A DNA stretch of 64,000 nt from a virus (Duplodnaviria; Caudoviricetes). A program made the translations under genes and the position numbers. The stretch is taken from positions 1 through 64,000 of the IMG/VR virus record IMGVR_UViG_3300023311_001083. One strand, written 5' to 3'. Shown one piece after another: positions 13,230 to 22,403 of this stretch; the stretch's first letter is position 1, and every line of letters starts with the position of its first letter. The notes under the pieces were generated by a model, which worked only from the letters and a program-made list of their open reading frames with translations, was not told where the DNA came from and searched no databases.

Positions 13230-13564
13230 TATATTGATCCAGTAATGTAAGATGATGTACCAATTGGCCCAATTGCTGTCCCCATGCCATATCCAATGCT
13301 ATATCCGATACCTGCCCCTCCTATATTTTGATCATACTTATTAGTTTCATTTAACCTAGATATTTCATAATACATTTCTAATTTAGAAATACGCTTGTCT
13401 TGCTCATTTAACAAAGCGCGTATAGGACCAACAGATACGTTACTATTTTCTGTAATGCTAGTTACTAACAATAAATTCTTCAATAACTTAGTTACTGCTG
13501 GTGCATCAGACGTTATTGCTTTATCAAATATGTCAATTAGAGTTGATATTTCAGTTTCAGTCAT
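13229..13564 (-). CDS. hypothetical protein
   Basis: 111 aa ORF, Gly-rich C-terminus. Confidence 0.6.
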   Translation of the reverse strand: MTETEISTLIDIFDKAITSDAPAVTKLLKNLLLVTSITENSNVSVGPIRALLNEQDKRISKLEMYYEISRLNETNKYDQNIGGAGIGYSIGYGMGTAIGPIGTSSYITGSI

Positions 13565-13565
13565 A

Positions 13566-14312
13566 TTATTTTACTTGAGCTGGTAATATGTAATTATATT
13601 CAGCAATACCACTATCAACTGTAACTTGCAGAGCACCTGCATTTGATATACGAATAGTCATATCACCAGAAAGATTTAAGATGCTACGAAATTGAGATAT
13701 TGGCCATGAAAATGGTCTAATTAATTTTCCATTGACATTAGTTTCAAATATAAAACTTCCAGCATGTGTACTTGCATCACCAAACGTAAATATTAAGTCA
13801 TTATTCGCATCAGTTGACACTTGAAAAACAGTTTCTTCGTTGTTTGCAGTTTGTTGATATTTAAATTTTTCAATACTTGTCAACGATGGGACGAATGTGA
13901 TATCCCAATTTGCACCTTTAAATTTAACTGATTTTAATTTCTCATTAATGATTTCTTGTTTCATAAATCGATAATCATTTTGAAAATCACCAGCTTTATT
14001 TTTAAAATGCAAACCTTTACAAATTACTTCACCATCTTTTGTATCAGTTACAACATTAATATTTGCATCATCTTTATACTCTGGACATTTTAAATGTATG
14101 TCTAATTTGTTAAGATTTGGCATACCAAATGTCCCTTCAAGATTTGAAACTGGAACATGTGTGGTGGCATTAACAATAACTGACCTATCTTCAGCAATAG
14201 ATTCGATTAGTGTTTCTGTACTAGATGATGATATTTTAACCAATGGTAAAAAACTTAACGCGTGGGTATGTGAAACTAAATCCTTTAAAAAATCTTTCAT
14301 GTAATTCTCCAT
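13566..14312 (-). CDS. DNA polymerase sliding clamp (gp45-like)
   Basis: 248 aa, FGMPNL and Y.YILPAQ motifs, directly downstream of polymerase. Confidence 0.7.
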   Translation of the reverse strand: MENYMKDFLKDLVSHTHALSFLPLVKISSSSTETLIESIAEDRSVIVNATTHVPVSNLEGTFGMPNLNKLDIHLKCPEYKDDANINVVTDTKDGEVICKGLHFKNKAGDFQNDYRFMKQEIINEKLKSVKFKGANWDITFVPSLTSIEKFKYQQTANNEETVFQVSTDANNDLIFTFGDASTHAGSFIFETNVNGKLIRPFSWPISQFRSILNLSGDMTIRISNAGALQVTVDSGIAEYNYILPAQVK

Positions 14313-14321
14313 TAAAATTAT

Positions 14322-14350
14322 ATTATATATTATTTGTATATTTTTGTCAA
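14322..14350 (-). promoter_or_regulatory. sigma70-like promoter
   Basis: TTGACA-17nt-TATAAT. Confidence 0.65.
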
Positions 14351-15442
14351 TTAAAACTCAAACAAACTTTCAAACATGTTAGTTCGTTCAGTACTTCTTA
14401 AATCCCAATGTAATACGCCAATTAAATTCTCCAGTTTCTTATTAATAATAATTGTTTCCATAGCGTCATGATCAAATGGTAATTCCTTAAACCATTGCGG
14501 TAATCTTAATTCATCAACAGGATATGCAACTGATGTTATACCTAATGGATTGTTTTTAAGCTTACAAACAATAACTTTCATACCATCTACTATACTCATA
14601 GAGTATTTGTCACTATTCATACGTTGTAACGTATTCCAATTGATACTCGCTCTAACATGACCTGGTAATCTAGCTTTACCTTCGTCGTTTTCTTTAGCTT
14701 GATAGTACGTGATTTTATTTGCTCGTTTGGGAGAACCTTTCTCCCAACCTGGACGTTCTTTGAAAATAATCCTAAAATTAACTATATGTTCCAAAACTTT
14801 TTCTTGTGTAGCATCAGTTAGCACCATTTCAAGTAATTCACTTAGAAATTTCTGAATAAAAACAGGTGTATCACTACGTCTGAGATCGAGACCCATTGCT
14901 TTTATCTTTCCTTCTTTACCTTTGATGTCTTGACGTTTTCCATCTTTATCATAAACTAAAACTGCATACCGCTTCTTAGTTATGAATAATCCAGTAGTAC
15001 CAACAATTTCTCTTCCAGCTTTTATAACTTCACCACGTGATTTTGGACAATGAAATGCATCATACATAAATTGCGGGAATGTTTCATTAACCATATCTGC
15101 CATTTCATCATATAATTCAATGATTGAATCTTTATTCCAGTCAATCCGCTTAGCATCAATATCTTTTTTAAATGTTTCATATGCTGAGAAATATACTGAA
15201 TTATGCAATAGAATATTATTACCAAACAACCAAGGCTTCTTTTCGTTTTTCATTCCAATATCATATACATACTCGTTGTTAGCTTGTCTTACCTTTTTAA
15301 CTGATTTAACTGGTGCACGATGCAGTGAGATCGTTGTTGGTTTTATTTTTGAAATATTTTTTCGAATATCAGATAATACCTGAACTTGTTCTTCAGTATT
15401 TGTTGAATGAATTAATGTTTTAAATAATGTAGTTAAAGTCAT
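14351..15442 (-). CDS. family B DNA polymerase, fragment 3 (C-intein plus C-terminal polymerase part)
   Basis: YVYDI..NNILLHN|SVYF splice junction, then KKRYA and KAMGLDLRRSDTP PolB motifs. Confidence 0.9.
   Translation of the reverse strand: MTLTTLFKTLIHSTNTEEQVQVLSDIRKNISKIKPTTISLHRAPVKSVKKVRQANNEYVYDIGMKNEKKPWLFGNNILLHNSVYFSAYETFKKDIDAKRIDWNKDSIIELYDEMADMVNETFPQFMYDAFHCPKSRGEVIKAGREIVGTTGLFITKKRYAVLVYDKDGKRQDIKGKEGKIKAMGLDLRRSDTPVFIQKFLSELLEMVLTDATQEKVLEHIVNFRIIFKERPGWEKGSPKRANKITYYQAKENDEGKARLPGHVRASINWNTLQRMNSDKYSMSIVDGMKVIVCKLKNNPLGITSVAYPVDELRLPQWFKELPFDHDAMETIIINKKLENLIGVLHWDLRSTERTNMFESLFEF
15200..15442 (-). other. C-terminal half of naturally split intein (81 aa)
   Basis: Block F VYDI, block G LLHN, +1 Ser. 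Confidence 0.88.
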
Positions 15443-17181
15443 GGTGTTGTTTTCTCGTTATTGGTTAATTGCATTTCAAAAACTATTTGTCCACAATCCC
15501 AAATTCTTCGATATTTGTTAAAATACATATTCTCTATTTCAGTAAGATTGTGGTTGTAATTTATTAATAAGTTAGCAAGGTTTCTTTTTTGAAAAAAAGA
15601 ACGATGCCAGATCTTCTTACAATCAGTATAATAATAACACGGATCAGTAACATGTGTCAATGTAAAATTACATTGTTTATATACATTTCCGTTGCTCCAT
15701 CTGCGATTTGCATATGAAATCAACATTCCGGTATGTGTTTTTTTAAATTCATTAATAATTTTACTAAATCCACCAATCACTGACGTGTTTATTACTGATG
15801 CAAAACGTATTAATTCGAAATAGTTATCAACTTTTTTTCTAAATCTAGATTTTCCAAATGTTGCAAGTGATACAATTTCTTGGTTATAAACTAAACCGAT
15901 ATGAATTGATCCAGATGCATACCCTTGTAAGTGATTTTGTTCAAAGAATGCTTTACTGTCTTTACCAGATAATAAAATAATTTTACAATGTCTAGCAAAT
16001 ATTCTACGAGATGCTTTTTTTAAATGATGTCGTATTGTAGATTTCCATATTTCTTGTTTTATAACGTCTTTCCATTCTAAATCTAGAATATGTAATAATT
16101 GTATTCCGTTTTCTTCGCATACAGTTGTTTTATTTAGGTGTTGTTTTGATTTAGCAAAATCAGTTTCTTTTGAAGCTGACGAATGCCAATAAATGCCGTT
16201 ATATTCTATTGCTAAATTAAACTTTGGTAAATATATATCAATTTCAAACCCTAAATCTCTCCACGAATGATTTATTTCATCAACACCAATTTCTGTTAAA
16301 AAATTAATAATTTCATATTCCGCAGCTGATTTATTTGTAGTAAATTGGATCCCACATTGTTTACATCCATTACCTGCTAAATGATAATATGCAACTTGTG
16401 AGAATTTTCCGTGTTTTTGACATATAATATCAACGATCTCACGAGCCGAGTTGTATATAGTTTGACTATAATCATATTTTAACCCGTGAATGTTTTGTGC
16501 TTTTAAAATGAATTCAGGGGTTGTTAACAGTATTTTTTTGGCATTTTGATCAAGACCACATTTCTTACATCCATGCCCACGCATGTGTACGCCTGCTACT
16601 TGTAAAAAAGACCCATGTATTGGACACACAATTTCTATTGAACTATTAATATCAATAAACTTGCGTTTGTCATATATATAGAAATTATTGTGTTCTTTCA
16701 TGCTTCTAGCAATCCAGTCTTCAACAGTAATACGTGGAATAATTGTATCACCATAACATTTTTGACACCGCATGCCTTTGATAAAATTTCTTGCTATTTG
16801 AAAAAATACTCCGTGTTTTTGGCAGTTTAATTCAATATACTGTATACTGCTTAGAAATTTTGGAACATTTATTAATTCATAATTATGAATGTTATGTTTT
16901 TTTAATGTTTCTAAAGAAATAATATTATTTGTATTAACGTGTAGGTTACACCGATATTTTGCATTTTCAAAATTTCTAAATTTTGAAATTATTGTTAATT
17001 GGGCATTACATATTTCACAAACTGGACTATCTTGGTTGTCTAAAAATAAGCATATGGCGGCCTGTACATCAAATATGTTTTGCCGACCGCCATATTTTAC
17101 GAGTATCTTATTAAATAATCTTGGATATTTTTTTTTAAACGAGGATACCGTTAAACCTCGAGTTATAAGCGAATTTGTCAT
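15439..17181 (-). mobile_element. Hef-like homing endonuclease gene between the split intein halves
   Basis: Three CxxHG.F.Q...H..G.GCxxC repeats, EIDIYLPKFNLAIEYNGIYWH nuclease motif; stop overlaps next ATG (ATGA). Confidence 0.82.
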
Positions 17182-17193
17182 ATTATATTTATA

Positions 17194-19176
17194 TTAATCT
17201 TTTTGACTAATTGAAATTAATATATCTGTTTCTTGAATATCAGCCGGCTTTACTTCTAGCAGGATTCCGGCTCGTTCAATCATTACTGAGTGGTCTTGAG
17301 TTACTGTTACAATATTACCTAACGCATCTTCGATTTCGTACAAATCTTTAGAAACTTTATGCCGATAGATATAATTAATGTGCCCTAAGTATGGCTCGTT
17401 CCTATCTGGGTCAAAACTCATAACGATTAACTCTGGATTATATGCATACTCTTTATCCCCGTCATTCCAAAATTGCGAGCACGAACTGAATAACTCTTCA
17501 ACTGTTTTCTCACCAAAATTAGTTTGATGCAATGTTGTGCCTATCCAACTATCAGTATCACCATATATAAGACTAGCGCCAAGATGGTCATATTTACCAG
17601 TGATAAATTCATTAGTTTTAGCACTCATGTGCTTAACAATTTGTCTGCCAGTTAATGTTGTTGATTGTCCAATTCGTTTATCTGAGAAACGGCATCCTTC
17701 ATTTAATAACGCGCCATATAATGCATTTAAATTAATTTTCTTAACTAATTGTCGTTTGTCCCAGTATTCTTCAGCAATTTTATCATTTTCATCTTTTGCT
17801 ATTGCTAATTTTGCCTGCAATTCTTGACGTTCTGCATACCATCGTTTTAATAATCCAGGAATGATACCTTCTTTTTCATAAGTAAAAATAGTACCATTTG
17901 CACTTAGCATCCAAGGTTGATTGCTTTTGAATATTAATTTATAAACTTCGGCAGCACTTAATATGTCACTTTCACCATTAACCCAATCAATTGTTATTTC
18001 AGTTCCTAATTCTTGATTCATAACTGACGTATATTCTAAACTTCCGAATATTCCTTCCCATGCTTGTGCTGCAGTTTTACCTTTTTTACCAGAAACTGAT
18101 TTAGCCATCAGTTTAGCAATGTGCGCCTCAGTTGCTGTCTGTCTTAACTGACCTACAATTGTTTCAGGGCTCATATTTACTGCGCGAATAGCACTGGGAT
18201 ATAGTGAGTTTATATCGAAAGAACCTATCCACCGATGAAAACCTTTCTTAGGATATGCTACATATGCACCAGCGGCACCTGATTCAGATTTAGTTAATTT
18301 TGATCTATTCGGAACTTGTAATCCCCTACTATGCGCTTCATTGATGATAGCTTGTTCAGTCATTGCAACTGTGCCTAAAGTTGTGGGCAATAGAACTGTG
18401 TTTTCATGTGCTAGTAAATTAGTTTGATATATGAATTTTAATTTAGCATCCAATTTAGCTAGGAGGTCTGTATCCTGTCTATTATATTGAATAAATGTTT
18501 TAAAATCATTATTATATAATTGATCTAAGGTGCCATCATACTCTGTTTTCTTTTCACCAAGTTCATACTCTGCAATTGCATCTAACGAATAACTATGACG
18601 TTCTTCATAAGTATACTTTTTATATAAATCTAGACTATCAATATTTACTCGTCCAATAAAATCATATGTAATTGATGTTTTTCCATATTTTTCATATTCA
18701 CGTTTTTTTGGTAGCTGATCAAATAAACAAAATCGTCTAGTATCATTTTTACTTAGAACTTTAGCAACTCTATGCACGGTATATGGGACATCATACGCTT
18801 GACAATTCCACCCTGATAATACGTCCGCATCTTGAATTAAATCCAAGAATGTATCCAATAATTCTTTTTCAGTTTTGAAAAGCAATGTATTAGGAAATTC
18901 TTTGACTTCTTCAATTGCCTGGTCCATTGTCAAAGATTTTGGTGGCACTGATAAACATATAGTTGTGTTTAACCATTGCAGATGAACTGCTATTGCAGTA
19001 ATTGGCATGAATGCGTCATCAGTTGAACTATAACCAGGACCAGGTTTTAAGTATCTGCAACCATCAATGTTAACCCACTGTTTTTTAATAGAATCCCATA
19101 CTTCATATTCATGTTTATTAGGTAGTTGGTTTAATTCAAAGACCGTTATTTCTTTTTCTTCCTGCACTTTTATCAT
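17194..19176 (-). CDS. family B DNA polymerase, fragment 2 (rest of exonuclease, palm up to YGDTD, N-intein)
   Basis: GWNCQAYD ExoII, YNRQD ExoIII, DINSLYPS region II, KINLNALYG region III, YGDTD followed by intein. Confidence 0.92.
   Translation of the reverse strand: MIKVQEEKEITVFELNQLPNKHEYEVWDSIKKQWVNIDGCRYLKPGPGYSSTDDAFMPITAIAVHLQWLNTTICLSVPPKSLTMDQAIEEVKEFPNTLLFKTEKELLDTFLDLIQDADVLSGWNCQAYDVPYTVHRVAKVLSKNDTRRFCLFDQLPKKREYEKYGKTSITYDFIGRVNIDSLDLYKKYTYEERHSYSLDAIAEYELGEKKTEYDGTLDQLYNNDFKTFIQYNRQDTDLLAKLDAKLKFIYQTNLLAHENTVLLPTTLGTVAMTEQAIINEAHSRGLQVPNRSKLTKSESGAAGAYVAYPKKGFHRWIGSFDINSLYPSAIRAVNMSPETIVGQLRQTATEAHIAKLMAKSVSGKKGKTAAQAWEGIFGSLEYTSVMNQELGTEITIDWVNGESDILSAAEVYKLIFKSNQPWMLSANGTIFTYEKEGIIPGLLKRWYAERQELQAKLAIAKDENDKIAEEYWDKRQLVKKINLNALYGALLNEGCRFSDKRIGQSTTLTGRQIVKHMSAKTNEFITGKYDHLGASLIYGDTDSWIGTTLHQTNFGEKTVEELFSSCSQFWNDGDKEYAYNPELIVMSFDPDRNEPYLGHINYIYRHKVSKDLYEIEDALGNIVTVTQDHSVMIERAGILLEVKPADIQETDILISISQKD
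17197..17550 (-). other. N-terminal half of naturally split intein (118 aa)
   Basis: Begins S-WIGTT after YGDTD, KTVEELF, block B TQDH, then stop codon. Confidence 0.88.
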
Positions 19177-19870
19177 TCCCAGTATATTTTGTTACATATT
19201 TGACAACTGACCCATCATTTAATTGCCCATTGCATTTTTTTATTTTATATTTTATATGGTCGTATGTATACCCTGTTATGAACATTACTTGTTCATATGA
19301 CCAAAATTTAATAATTGACCCATCCATTTTTGTTAGTTGCATTTGTGAGCCTTTTCCTTTTCTTATCATGTTACCACGTGTTTTTTGATCACACTGTCCA
19401 ACTGACGCTTTCATTCGAACATGCATTTCTTCTTTAGATAGTTTGCTCAACGTATTTTTTAATGTATTACTCACTTTATTATAATCATACTGATATTTTC
19501 CTAATTTATGATTTTCACTAAATCGGCGTTTTCTTTCTTCACATTTGTTTGGATTCTCATCAATATATCTTTTCCTTGCTTCAGCATACGCATGACTAGT
19601 TACTACGTAACTATTATATCCGGATCGTGTTTTTGCCATCCACCATAATGCATATATCATTTTCTTTCTAAATGTCGGGTTATTTTTATACATTTTTACT
19701 AATAAAAGATGGCAAATAAAATGTTCACGAGTAGTTAAGTATACGAGGTTAAATTCATCATTTGTACCACCACAACTTTTTGGAAGAATATGGTGTTTTT
19801 CTAATCCAATATCTTTTGTTTTAAATTTAGAATTTTCAATTATACTAAAATATATTTTTTCATAGTTCAT
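19136..19870 (-). mobile_element. HNH homing endonuclease gene inserted in polymerase exonuclease region
   Basis: EKHHILPKSCGGTN..FNLVYLTTREHFICH HNH motif; own GTTAAATA motif at 19887-19894; 3' end overlaps fragment 2 start. Confidence 0.88.
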
Positions 19871-19916
19871 AAGTTTCTCTTATAACTATTTAACTTGAGC
19901 TCCTCCATACCAATAA

Positions 19917-20309
19917 TTATTTTAGTTTTTTTCTAATTTTTACTATTTGTTGGCTTGGAACAGCAAATGGTTGCATATCAACTTCAATGTCCCAGAAAGC
20001 GACATTTAAATTTGGTGATTCTTGATGCATATAGTGTTCAGCTAATGCAACAAATACTGGATTGGTATCAGATTCAAATAATACTTTACCGCTATTAATT
20101 GCTTGTTCTTTTCTAAAATCATTTGTAGATTTACATACAATACGATTTAGTTTATCCCCATAAATACTTTCATATTTACCTTTTGTATCTTTGTAATAAA
20201 AAGTATACTTAACTGGTATATTTCGAAATATACGTTCACCAGATTTAGATCGTTCTACTATTTTAATTTGATCTGCGTTTCTATCAAAGAAACCATCCAC
20301 ATATGACAT
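19917..20309 (-). CDS. family B DNA polymerase, fragment 1 (N-terminal domain through ExoI DIEVD)
   Basis: MSYVD, LFESDTNPVF..L..HY, AFWDIEVD ExoI, then a 19 aa non-polymerase tail. Confidence 0.85.
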   Translation of the reverse strand: MSYVDGFFDRNADQIKIVERSKSGERIFRNIPVKYTFYYKDTKGKYESIYGDKLNRIVCKSTNDFRKEQAINSGKVLFESDTNPVFVALAEHYMHQESPNLNVAFWDIEVDMQPFAVPSQQIVKIRKKLK

Positions 20310-20362
20310 TTAATCTCCTTGTTATTGTGACTGCTAAATTAATAGCAGCCACTATCTTTCTT

Positions 20363-20620
20363 TTAGATTTTTTTAGTTATATCTAAAATAGCTTCAACTT
20401 CTTCCCAATCTTCATTGTAATCTTGCCAGTTTCCTTTATGTGCAATTTTTATTGCTTTATTAATAACACTAGGTTTTACACTTAGTTCTTCTGCAACCGC
20501 TTTCACAGTTTCTTTAAGTCCTTCTTGTAAAGCTTCAATTTCATGTAATACTGTACTTCCTTCATTAATTAGCCGTTCTAATTTTGATTTTTCTTCTGGG
20601 CCGTAGCTTCTATCTGCCAT
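20363..20620 (-). CDS. small DNA-binding protein (DsbA/GapR-like)
   Basis: EIEALQEGLKETVKAVAEEL.VKPSVINKAIKIAH helical pattern; start MADRSY at 20620. Confidence 0.5.
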   Translation of the reverse strand: MADRSYGPEEKSKLERLINEGSTVLHEIEALQEGLKETVKAVAEELSVKPSVINKAIKIAHKGNWQDYNEDWEEVEAILDITKKI

Positions 20621-20648
20621 TTTGTTCTCCGTGGTTATTAAAATAAAC

Positions 20649-20677
20649 ATTATACATTAAATAGTTATGTATGTCAA
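20649..20677 (-). promoter_or_regulatory. sigma70-like promoter for the polymerase operon
   Basis: TTGACA-17nt-TATAAT. Confidence 0.7.
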
Positions 20678-20685
20678 TTATAAGA

Positions 20686-20714
20686 CAAAAAAAAGGCAGA
20701 TATAAATCTGCCTT
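20686..20714 (-). terminator. intrinsic terminator
   Basis: AAGGCAGA-loop-TCTGCCTT followed by U-tract on minus strand. Confidence 0.7.
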
Positions 20715-20762
20715 AGTGTAGTGACCATAGTTCAGTGATTTTTACACACCGAGTTATTATAG

Positions 20763-22403
20763 TTATAGTTTAGAAATTTCAGCCCATTTAGTTTTTAATG
20801 CATCTAATTGTGGTTTAAGAGGAGCATCTGGAGTAGCAGTTTTTAAACGACTTTCAATTCTTGCTCTTAATTGGTCTAGTTCCATATCGCTTCTAAATTT
20901 AGCATTTTGAACTTCGCTATTTGCAAATGGATTAGTTGTTGTATTATGATCATAAGGCCCGATTATCGGTTCTATATCGCCACCTTGATTAAATACATGA
21001 TCTAATGCAGCACCAGCTGCCATACCGCCACCAATTTTAGCAGCATTTCCTAATTTACTAGATGATGGTTTTGCATTTTTCTTAAATAAATTTTGTATTG
21101 GTTGAGGTTGTGTTGGTGGTGTGGGTTTTTTAGCAAATAAACCTTTAACCCAACCCGCATCTTTTTTAGCACCGCCCCACGCAGCTTTACCAGCAAATTT
21201 TCCTGCTCCTATAGCAGCTCCTAATGCACCTTCAGCTACTGCACTATCAATTGGTGTAAGAGTATTAGGATCAACTGGGTTGTCGTTTTCATCAAATAAC
21301 CCTTCTGGAGTCATTGCATATTTTTTACCATCTTTACCTTGAATTAAAATTGGCTCTTCTTCAACAGTAACACCTTCATTAATCATATCTAATTTAGCTT
21401 GTAGCAATCTTATAGATTCTGCAAGTGATGGTTGATTAGTATTAACTTTATTTTGAATTAACTGAAATTCTGGTGGTGGAGTTGCACCTTGTTGTGCTAA
21501 TATTGCATAAGTTTTTTCACCAATTAGTCCATCTGGTGTCAGACCATTTGCAGTTTGAAATGATACTATTTCATCACGCGTTGATGGCCAACTTACTGGT
21601 TGTGTTGGTTGTTCTTCTGGTATTTCACCTTCTAAATCTCTAGTTGCATTATATACGTCCAACCCTGTTCCTACTGCCCACCCAATACCAGGAATAAAAT
21701 ATGAGGCACCAGCTAGTGCGGCAATTCCAGCACCTTCTATATCTCCTTTTTTAAGACGATCATATGCATCTTTGGCACTAATAGCAGATCCTACAAACGG
21801 AACTGCTTTTGCTAATGATCTTCCACCTACGCTTGATGCAATTTTACCAGCAGTTGATGTAGTAGCATCTTCAGAAGTATACCTAAAGCTTTCTAATAAC
21901 TGATCTGAAATTTTAATAGATTCCATTGCTGGTTTAGGTTCTGGTTTTTTTGTTTTAGCAATATAATCTTTCAATGCTTTATATTGATCAATCATACTTG
22001 AAATATCTTGTAACGCTGCTTGTTGAGTTGATGCTCTATCTGATGCTTGGTTTGCAAGATCACTTTTGTATTTTGTTGCTGCGTCATACACATGATCATT
22101 TCCAAACATATGAGATGAAGTTTTTGCATTGGCTGGTATTAAACCCAGTCTTGATAATTCACGATCAGTATTATCATCTGAACTAGATTCAGAACCAGTA
22201 TTATCAACAAAACTCCCAGACACTGGATCATATAAACCAGGTAAATTATTAGTTTTTGCAAACTGTCCTAATGATGCAAATCTACCAGCTGGGTTTTGTT
22301 CTTGACCTAGTATAGCAGCAGAAACATCTTTTAAAGTTATACTTTCCAATAAAGAAGAATTTTCAATATCAGATAATTTTTGCATTAATGATTTTAAATC
22401 CAT
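20763..22403 (-). CDS. putative virion/internal head protein with peptidoglycan-binding domain
   Basis: FQTANGLTPDGLIGEKT PGBD motif, Ala/Gly-rich segments, multiple LxE sites. Confidence 0.6.
   Translation of the reverse strand: MDLKSLMQKLSDIENSSLLESITLKDVSAAILGQEQNPAGRFASLGQFAKTNNLPGLYDPVSGSFVDNTGSESSSDDNTDRELSRLGLIPANAKTSSHMFGNDHVYDAATKYKSDLANQASDRASTQQAALQDISSMIDQYKALKDYIAKTKKPEPKPAMESIKISDQLLESFRYTSEDATTSTAGKIASSVGGRSLAKAVPFVGSAISAKDAYDRLKKGDIEGAGIAALAGASYFIPGIGWAVGTGLDVYNATRDLEGEIPEEQPTQPVSWPSTRDEIVSFQTANGLTPDGLIGEKTYAILAQQGATPPPEFQLIQNKVNTNQPSLAESIRLLQAKLDMINEGVTVEEEPILIQGKDGKKYAMTPEGLFDENDNPVDPNTLTPIDSAVAEGALGAAIGAGKFAGKAAWGGAKKDAGWVKGLFAKKPTPPTQPQPIQNLFKKNAKPSSSKLGNAAKIGGGMAAGAALDHVFNQGGDIEPIIGPYDHNTTTNPFANSEVQNAKFRSDMELDQLRARIESRLKTATPDAPLKPQLDALKTKWAEISKL

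Follow-up and report, generated by a model that had tools for sequence, protein, structure and literature searches.

The replicative DNA polymerase (PolB) of an uncultured jumbo phage is encoded as three genes in the DNA analysed here, the first 64 kb (below, the window; G+C about 31%) of a 75.9-kb viral contig, IMG/VR record IMGVR_UViG_3300023311_001083, which is about 22% complete by estimate. The three genes belong to a set of five tightly packed open reading frames (ORFs) on the minus strand, the other two of which encode homing endonucleases and separate the polymerase pieces. One break falls within the polymerase active site, between the motif YGDTD and the Ser that follows it; the other falls within the proofreading site, just after the ExoI motif. 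The features of the locus, in order of reading, are the following (aa, amino acids; nt, nucleotides).

Positions 19917..20309, minus strand: PolB piece 1, 130 aa, comprising the first part of the N-terminal domain and the first exonuclease strand with ExoI (PHROG 262, DNA polymerase, 4e-12).
Positions 19920..19976, minus strand: basic C-terminal tail of piece 1, residues 112-130, MQPFAVPSQQIVKIRKKLK; cassette-derived, absent from unsplit relatives.
Positions 19136..19870, minus strand: free-standing Mob-like HNH homing endonuclease gene, 244 aa, overlapping the beginning of piece 2 with its final 41 nt.
Positions 17194-19176, minus strand: PolB piece 2, whole ORF, 660 aa.
Positions 19036..19176, minus strand: N-terminal head of piece 2, about 44-47 aa with an acidic start, MIKVQEEKEITVFEL...GCRYLK; cassette-derived.
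Positions 17551..19035, minus strand: extein of piece 2, with the rest of the exonuclease domain (ExoII, ExoIII), the palm, and the fingers up to YGDTD.
Positions 17197..17550, minus strand: N-intein, 118 aa, with Ser1, blocks A, N2, B (TQDH) and N4, and the RH of motif NX.
Positions 15439..17181, minus strand: free-standing homing endonuclease, putatively of the Vsr-like (I-Bth0305I) family, 580 aa, beginning 12 nt beyond the piece 2 stop codon and overlapping piece 3 by ATGA.
Positions 14351-15442, minus strand: PolB piece 3, whole ORF, 363 aa.
Positions 15200..15442, minus strand: C-intein, 81 aa, with blocks F and G, ending ...NNILLHN.
Positions 14351..15199, minus strand: extein of piece 3, with Ser+1, VYFS..., KKRYA and the thumb.

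A preliminary description of this DNA had distributed the PolB motifs, in order, over the ORFs at 19917-20309, 17194-19176 and 14351-15442, with an endonuclease gene in each gap. Coordinates and strand are exact and the motifs stand where it had put them: ExoI (FWDIEVD, residues 105-111, with DIE at 107-109) in piece 1; ExoII (GWNCQAYDVPY), ExoIII (YNRQDTDLL), motif A (DINSLYPS), motif B (KINLNALYG) and YGDTD in piece 2, which matches the Pfam families DNA_pol_B (4.9e-28) and DNA_pol_B_exo1 (4.6e-13); and KKRYA in piece 3 (DNA_pol_B, 4.4e-6). The genes in the gaps are likewise endonucleases, of PHROG 655 (19136-19870) and PHROG 559/3339 (15439-17181). The closest relatives of the polymerase, with no more than 52% identity, are the PolBs of jumbo phages PA5oct/MIJ3, SCTP-2, Atu_ph07 and the Rak2-like group; a megablast comparison of the polymerase locus with cultured phages gave no match, and it shares no DNA with them. 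Set against the contiguous SCTP-2 polymerase and the PA5oct genes, a comparison with unsplit orthologues that the preliminary description had proposed, the three pieces are collinear and without overlap.

The split itself is not an accident of assembly, one of two objections that had been raised in advance, because an identical piece 1 occurs on 13 contigs and the same gene order recurs on four independent IMG/VR contigs. In these four (L086, L087, L092 and L132), piece 1, an intact orthologue of the HNH gene (57-68% identity) and piece 2 follow one another in the same order and with the same overlap. One of them, L086, also has the N-intein, so that the double fracture recurs.

The break at YGDTD|S is, judged by its motifs, a canonical split intein of the Ser1/Ser+1 kind, its two halves separated by a putatively Vsr-like endonuclease gene. 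After YGDTD, piece 2 reads SWIGTT..., TVEELF, ...VTQDHSVMI and LLEVKPADIQETDILI, while the first 81 residues of piece 3 end VYDIGMKNEKKPWLFGNNILLHN (NNILLHN) and are followed by SVYFS; all the hallmarks of a class 1 split intein (Ser1, TxxH in block B, terminal His-Asn, Ser+1) are present. Joined, the exteins read YGDTDSVYFS, collinear with the intein-less relatives. The curated models score just under or below their cut-offs (TIGR01445 on the N-intein, 24.4 bits against 24.5; Pfam Intein_splicing, 22.3 bits against 35.8); the window intein aligns block for block with those of MIJ3/PA5oct and SCTP-2, and the blocks published for the MIJ3 split intein match it in the same way (PMC6892783). The trans-splicing at the polymerase active site proposed in the preliminary description is thus backed by every residue it calls for (Ser1, TQDH, the terminal HN and Ser+1) and by homology to the MIJ3/PA5oct split intein and the mini-intein of SCTP-2, which is contiguous. 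A split intein, with a 118-aa N half and an 81-aa C half, would have been fractured by the putatively Vsr-like homing endonuclease gene; its halves would associate and trans-splice, making a peptide bond between pieces 2 and 3 and restoring YGDTDSVYFS. We infer that this intein is probably functional.

As a kind, the intein fracture is already known, because MIJ3 and PA5oct share the published arrangement (Imam et al. 2019, PMC6892783; for "fractured genes", Dassa et al. 2009, PMC2677866), of which the window intein is a new member. The likeness covers the insertion point at YGDTD|S, homologous intein blocks, the Ser1/Ser+1 chemistry, the canonical split position and an endonuclease gene of the same family between the halves. 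In PA5oct, the layout is likewise one of three genes (pol-N, 803 aa; a "Hef-like homing endonuclease", 560 aa; pol-C, 379 aa). The difference lies in the N-terminal part, which is unbroken in those phages (803 aa in PA5oct), whereas the window adds the ExoI break; PA5oct is moreover only about 52% identical to the window. The 580-aa endonuclease falls in PHROG 559/3339 (E 2e-113 and 5e-102), whose PHROG labels are "HNH/homing endonuclease", and its only solved relative is the catalytic domain of I-Bth0305I (3r3p), a weak phmmer match (E 9.4e-4, residues 291-385). The Vsr-like endonuclease family was first found in "fractured genes" (PMC2677866).

Three further observations concern this intein and its endonuclease. 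In SCTP-2 (L002:3668-6934), the homologous intein lies two codons away, as YGD|S...KN|TDS with Thr+1, while in the window and PA5oct it is YGDTD|S...HN|S with Ser+1, which suggests that the insertion point has shifted within motif C. A homologue of the 580-aa endonuclease (PHROG 3339, E 4e-123) stands free and outside any intein at L118:12800-14308, about 1 kb downstream of a polymerase gene that is re-fused and intein-less. In L086, the ORF that follows the N-intein (L086:6229-7140) is not a Vsr-like endonuclease: it belongs to PHROG 22677, of unknown function, and the contig ends inside it.

The proofreading-site break has a different anatomy. Most related loci carry a plain contiguous gene that reads DIEVDFDPERGY...PFMPI; more than 140 are contiguous at the ExoI point, and five, the window included, have an HNH gene there. 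In the window, piece 1 ends DIEVDMQPFAVPSQQIVKIRKKLK-stop and piece 2 starts with a 44-residue head, MIKVQEEKEITVFELNQLPNKHEYEVWDSIKKQWVNIDGCRYLK, after which the family sequence resumes at PGPGYSSTDDAFMPI. From the reading of the plain relatives, the tail and the head are therefore extra sequence: together they amount to an insertion of about 62 residues (61-68 across its forms) that unsplit relatives do not have. The tail has five basic residues (Lys/Arg) and no acidic ones, and the head opens with the acidic QEEKEITVFEL; neither occurs in the plain relatives.

The HNH gene product matches PHROG 655 ("homing endonuclease", HNH type, E 5.7e-35) and, below the cut-off of 21.4 bits, Pfam HNH (17.7 bits). 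Its closest homologues in cultured phages (tblastn) are "homing endonuclease" genes of T4-like Klebsiella phages, at 33.5% identity, and by its sequence it is a member of the free-standing (Mob-type) homing endonuclease family of T4-like phages. RNA hairpins over its start codon are no better than those of shuffled sequences (z -1.5 to +0.4), so a translational block like that of mobE is not shown. The end of the tail, IVKIRKK (19920-19950), and the start of the head, MIKVQEE (19150-19176), both align with the KVKIRKK of a fused insert in the related contig L007 (below), and a short duplication may therefore flank the HNH gene. A different duplication, in which MAFFT and BLAST placements made the head a copy of a segment upstream of ExoI, turned out to be an alignment artefact and was dropped once the fused forms were seen.

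An HNH ORF in the gap of a phage gene raises the question of a self-splicing intron, which would restore the frame by RNA splicing and leave the tail and the head outside the mature protein. HNH genes do occur in phage group I introns, including those of polymerase genes, and L007 has a true group I intron elsewhere in the same gene. That intron served as the positive control: it is found with 95.4 bits, and because of this the Rfam method can be said to work in this lineage, yet the same search of positions 13500-21000 of the window gave no intron even at E<=1. Only about 140 nt of the ExoI gap lie outside the HNH ORF. The tail and head, moreover, are open and conserved as protein (pN/pS, the ratio of nonsynonymous to synonymous differences per site, 0.27-0.28), and they stand in frame within the single ORFs of L118 (948 aa), L007 and P0099. 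We consider an intron at this place extremely improbable.

Protein splicing fares little better. The tail and head could be a minimised or non-canonical protein-splicing element that still joins the pieces covalently, or excises itself when fused: their predicted joint domain looks like the N-terminal portion of an atypically split intein, with the break at the S1 split site, and a Cys in the head (GCxYL) as well as Ser and Gln in the tail are conserved. Against this, tail and head contain no nucleophile, the equivalent of residue 1 being Gln or Pro; TxxH and the terminal His-Asn are missing, as are blocks B, F and G, and position +1 is Gly. The element has 62-66 aa in all, about half the size of the smallest known working intein, and two distant heads (P0103 and P0104) have Ser in place of the conserved Cys. 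Covalent joining at this site thus seems to us very improbable.

Intron signal and intein catalytic residues being absent, the second, probably non-covalent, assembly at the proofreading site that the preliminary description had also proposed is the best reading of the break, and the conserved, complementary tail and head peptides are its candidate agents: the tail and head probably clip pieces 1 and 2 together without splicing.

The distribution of these peptides bears on whether they have a role. About 25 stand-alone homologues of piece 1 (129-132 aa) occur on contigs of up to 249 kb and share the tail DMQPFAVxSQxxVKIRKK; head-bearing homologues of piece 2 have 651-660 aa with the intein and 816-820 aa without it. 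In three relatives in all (L118, where the polymerase is a single ORF of 948 aa, L007 and P0099), tail and head are fused in frame and the HNH gene is missing. Because these fused forms exist, the extra sequence must be translated and tolerated as an internal insert. By an estimate from base composition, the chance that a stretch of 57 codons stays open is about 1%. Across six loci, and with pS near saturation, pN/pS is 0.27 for the tail, 0.28 for the head, 0.31 and 0.19 for the cores of piece 1 and piece 2, respectively, and 0.31 for the HNH gene; tail and head are under purifying selection.

A profile of the insert, searched against 1.84 billion representative proteins, found the head on far more distant PolBs, as well as one more fused form. 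These distant heads are 45-51% identical, while the adjoining PolB cores are only 27-37% identical. No head was found in cultured phages, where the tblastn matches begin at residue 45 or later, and among the IMG/VR loci searched for with P0104 and P0105 none bore a head.

It could be objected that tail and head are accidental leftovers of the insertion, for instance from read-through into foreign DNA, that play no part, the native interface alone assembling the enzyme. That interface is large, and in the NrdA enzyme of phage Aeh1 the comparable tails are not needed for heterodimer formation itself (PMC3045599). But tail and head are more conserved than their host gene (45-51% for the head, 27-37% for the core), they are under purifying selection, and they are kept as a folded, high-confidence insert where the HNH gene has gone; we regard the leftover explanation as unlikely.

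Several observations indicate that tail, HNH gene and head travel together. A quick-search tree of polymerase cores (72 rows) requires seven state changes to account for the seven insert-bearing genes, one of which, L007, belongs to the second major clade, where a plain gene is its neighbour with 98% support. Between L086, which is split, and its plain neighbour L089, DNA homology runs up to the DIE codons and begins again at the EDAFMP codons just after GYxxP; between these flanks, 33 nt are replaced by 961 nt. By these comparisons, tail, HNH gene and head behave as one mobile cassette that would move between polymerase genes, always to the same site. The terminal branches of all seven insert-bearing polymerases (window, L007, L118, L092, L087, L132 and L086) are long, 0.12-0.40 against a median of 0.059, which could be due to sparse sampling, to a faster evolution of split enzymes or to a mosaic made by co-conversion. 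As a separate observation, the L007 gene (L007:7983-12056 of 3300022839_000007) is one PolB gene with three intervening elements, namely the fused tail/head insert after ExoI, the group I intron (L007:10079-10293) near motif B and a YGDTD|S split intein, whose halves, separated by just about 110 nt, enclose no endonuclease gene.

The other objection raised in advance was that an intact PolB might exist elsewhere in the genome, with these ORFs decaying. Put for the ExoI break in particular, it would be plain damage: piece 1 would be unused, and the phage would have an exonuclease-deficient polymerase or another polymerase elsewhere. Only about 22% of the genome is in hand and, because of this coverage, there is room for a second intact PolB; the related phage SCTP-2 has a Pol I-like gene near its PolB. 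Decay, the other half of the objection, is opposed by the conservation of all the pieces across lineages. Piece 1 keeps every invariant residue, including DIE, and is an intact ORF of 129-132 aa in many diverged lineages (pN/pS 0.31); it also carries half of the N-terminal domain, which is needed for the fold of the rest of the enzyme. No second PolB was found in 107-158 kb of three related contigs. Damage is, in our judgement, an improbable account.

A model of the complex shows how the clip could work. Separate alignments were used for piece 1 and for residues 1-330 of piece 2; modelled together, the two reached a score of 0.91, while the best of three controls scored 0.00. This mark is reached by 58 of 80 solved complexes and, among mismatched pairs, by 2 of 110. 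At least 90% of the contacts are shared between the runs, and the pLDDT (predicted local distance difference test) of the partner is at least 85. In the model, residues 118-129 of the tail contact residues 5-13, 15-16 and 23-27 of the head, and the ExoI strand (residues 101-109 of piece 1) lies between residues 57-68 and 114-123 of piece 2, as in single-chain gp43. The confident tail-head contact is not something that solved structures could account for.

The insert was also modelled in its fused form. An AlphaFold2 (AF2) model of residues 1-457 of L118 is poor overall (mean pLDDT 60.5) and was used for the insert only, which it folds as β-β-α-β-β with pLDDT 85-93; the insert folded alone has the same pattern, with a core pLDDT of 81-85. 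Tail and head are thus predicted to form one small β-β-α-β-β domain, and the gene break corresponds to the loop of its first hairpin.

The course of events at ExoI can then be proposed as follows. A Mob-like HNH gene lies inside an insertion of about 62 residues just after ExoI, leaving the first strand of the insertion as the basic tail of piece 1 and the remainder as the head of piece 2, with its acidic start. We infer that tail and head re-form the mini-domain and, together with the large native interface, hold piece 1 on piece 2 non-covalently. Piece 1 would give the ExoI strand, which would slot between strands of piece 2, and the exonuclease site would therefore be composite. The cassette of tail, HNH gene and head would in this way carry its own remedy for the damage that it does.

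The closest precedent for such an arrangement is NrdA of phage Aeh1 (Friedrich 2007; Crona et al. 2011, PMC3045599), in which nrdA is interrupted by mobE and activity depends on two tails, a basic one on NrdA-a and an acidic one on NrdA-b; the authors of that work proposed that tails of this kind may be a general antidote carried by the element (PMC3045599). In both cases, an essential enzyme related to replication is broken within its active-site fold by a free-standing Mob-type HNH gene, which runs into the beginning of the downstream piece; the upstream piece has a basic and the downstream piece an acidic tail, both absent from unsplit orthologues, with no RNA or protein splicing at the break. 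The window differs in its target, the proofreading site of PolB, and in that its tail and head are not confined to a single phage: as a conserved cassette they occur in many uncultured phages and across divergent PolB lineages, a single small folded domain is predicted for them, and re-fused natural forms without the HNH gene exist. An intein origin was only speculated for Aeh1, whereas the window element has weak structural and sequence support for one. The ExoI fracture is thus a widespread mobile cassette, and what is new in it relative to Aeh1-type genes in pieces is a conserved, mobile and apparently folded clasp with natural fused intermediates and a possible intein ancestry.

PolB genes in two cistrons are known from the T4-type gene 43 (43A/43B) of Aeromonas phages 25 and 44RR (Petrov et al. 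2010, reviewed in PMC2988022), in one case separated by a homing endonuclease gene (seg); in Aeromonas phage 25, the gp43 pieces co-purify and polymerise DNA (PMC2988022). The seg family is distinct from the Mob-like HNH family of the window, 44RR has an untranslated spacer and no endonuclease gene, and that gene has no intein; a conserved clasp domain is not mentioned in PMC2988022.

Where the mini-domain came from is a separate matter. Fold searches with a 78-residue model gave weak matches (best Z 4.3, with intein rows at Z 2.1-4.3; best Foldseek E 0.46, with Foldseek probabilities of up to 0.80). Among the 50 structural neighbours listed out of 48,161 representative chains, 13 are inteins or Hint domains: Prp8, PolII, KlbA, Neq Pol, VidaL, NrdJ-1, PolB16 OarG, Npu DnaE, Cat, Hedgehog, PI-PfuI, MchDnaB and AceL. 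Five of the top six Foldseek rows are likewise inteins or Hint domains. When the insert profile was compared with the sequences of the Protein Data Bank (PDB), the VidaL intein was the second-best match (E 0.22), residues 9-44 of the insert corresponding to 4-41 of VidaL, and the tail/head break aligns with the natural split site of VidaL after residue 16. VidaL and PolB16 are atypically split inteins whose N fragment of 15-16 residues ends just after β2 (PMC13014065, PMC10189870). A Pfam search of the insert at E<=10 returned chance-level rows only, and the ESM Atlas gave no usable match.

VidaL and PolB16 OarG are the best sequence and fold neighbours of the mini-domain, though weak ones; their short N fragment (15-16 aa) ends after β2, at a split site with which the tail/head boundary aligns. 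They differ in what the window element lacks: every catalytic residue and roughly two thirds of the Hint fold, which needs about 125 aa or more; with these missing, the mini-domain cannot be a working intein. PolB16, moreover, sits at GDTD|S, which in the window is the site of the canonical intein and not of the ExoI break. We give about even odds that the mini-domain descends from an atypically split (S1-type) intein and is what remains of it, catalytically dead. The fuller proposition, that a domesticated S1-intein stump lost its chemistry, kept its fragment recognition, became a portable clasp that together with an HNH gene breaks divergent PolBs at the proofreading site and holds them, and turned into an in-frame domain after loss of the HNH gene, is tentative, and we lean slightly against it. 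The clasp mechanism is independent of a dead-intein origin.

Taking the locus as a whole, we think it likely that two unrelated selfish elements lie in one PolB gene and that two different routes, both at the protein level, restore the enzyme. A number of points weigh against parts of this account. The pass of the complex model may be largely the model's memory of the single-chain gp43 structures of RB69 and T4, and, since single-chain structures of this fold have been solved, its two halves would be expected to score high. The alignments behind the AF2 models are shallow (12-26 rows), and the 457-residue model is poor outside the insert. As to ancestry, each intein-like match is individually insignificant (Z <=4.3, Foldseek E >=0.46, hidden Markov model E 0.22), hhalign finds no similarity between the insert and the gene's own intein family (probability 0.15%), and no full-length intein ancestor at the ExoI site was found among the 1.84 billion representative proteins. 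The remaining ~78% of the genome, finally, may hold a second intact PolB.

The five ORFs appear to form one operon, together with which the following flanking features are to be noted; both promoter-like sites are consensus matches only.

Positions 20693-20714: terminator-like hairpin, near the promoter-like site at 20649..20677.
Positions 20649..20677, minus strand: consensus promoter-like site TTGACA-17-TATAAT, a perfect sigma-70 match, upstream of the 95-aa ORF and the polymerase genes.
Positions 20363-20650: 95-aa ORF, between the consensus promoter and piece 1.
Positions 14322..14350, minus strand: the following perfect promoter-like consensus site, immediately beyond the stop codon of piece 3, which bounds the five-ORF unit.

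There is no terminator-like site inside the five-ORF unit, between the promoter-like matches at 20677-20649 and 14350-14322. The 95-aa ORF (20363-20650), which matches PHROG 12534 (unknown) and PHROG 639 (transcriptional regulator, 5.8e-12), looks co-transcribed with the polymerase pieces.

In a single essential gene, two protein-level repairs of the damage done by selfish elements would thus stand side by side, to which relatives add a third element, a group I intron. The ExoI cassette widens the tails of Aeh1, known from a single phage, to a conserved, widespread and mobile module, of which natural intermediates exist, both split with the HNH gene and re-fused without it. For annotation, the "hypothetical proteins" of 130 aa upstream of HNH genes in jumbo-phage contigs are best taken for the ExoI part of PolB. 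A tail of 19 residues and a head of 44 that together rebuild a fold are possibly useful as a small natural split tag. Should the intein ancestry be true, the cassette would offer a concrete path from an intein through a non-splicing assembly domain to an ordinary protein insertion; and should the portable clasp be real, it would be a natural short heterodimerisation tag and, after RNA splicing and protein splicing, a third heritable means by which a selfish element can make its own insertion harmless.

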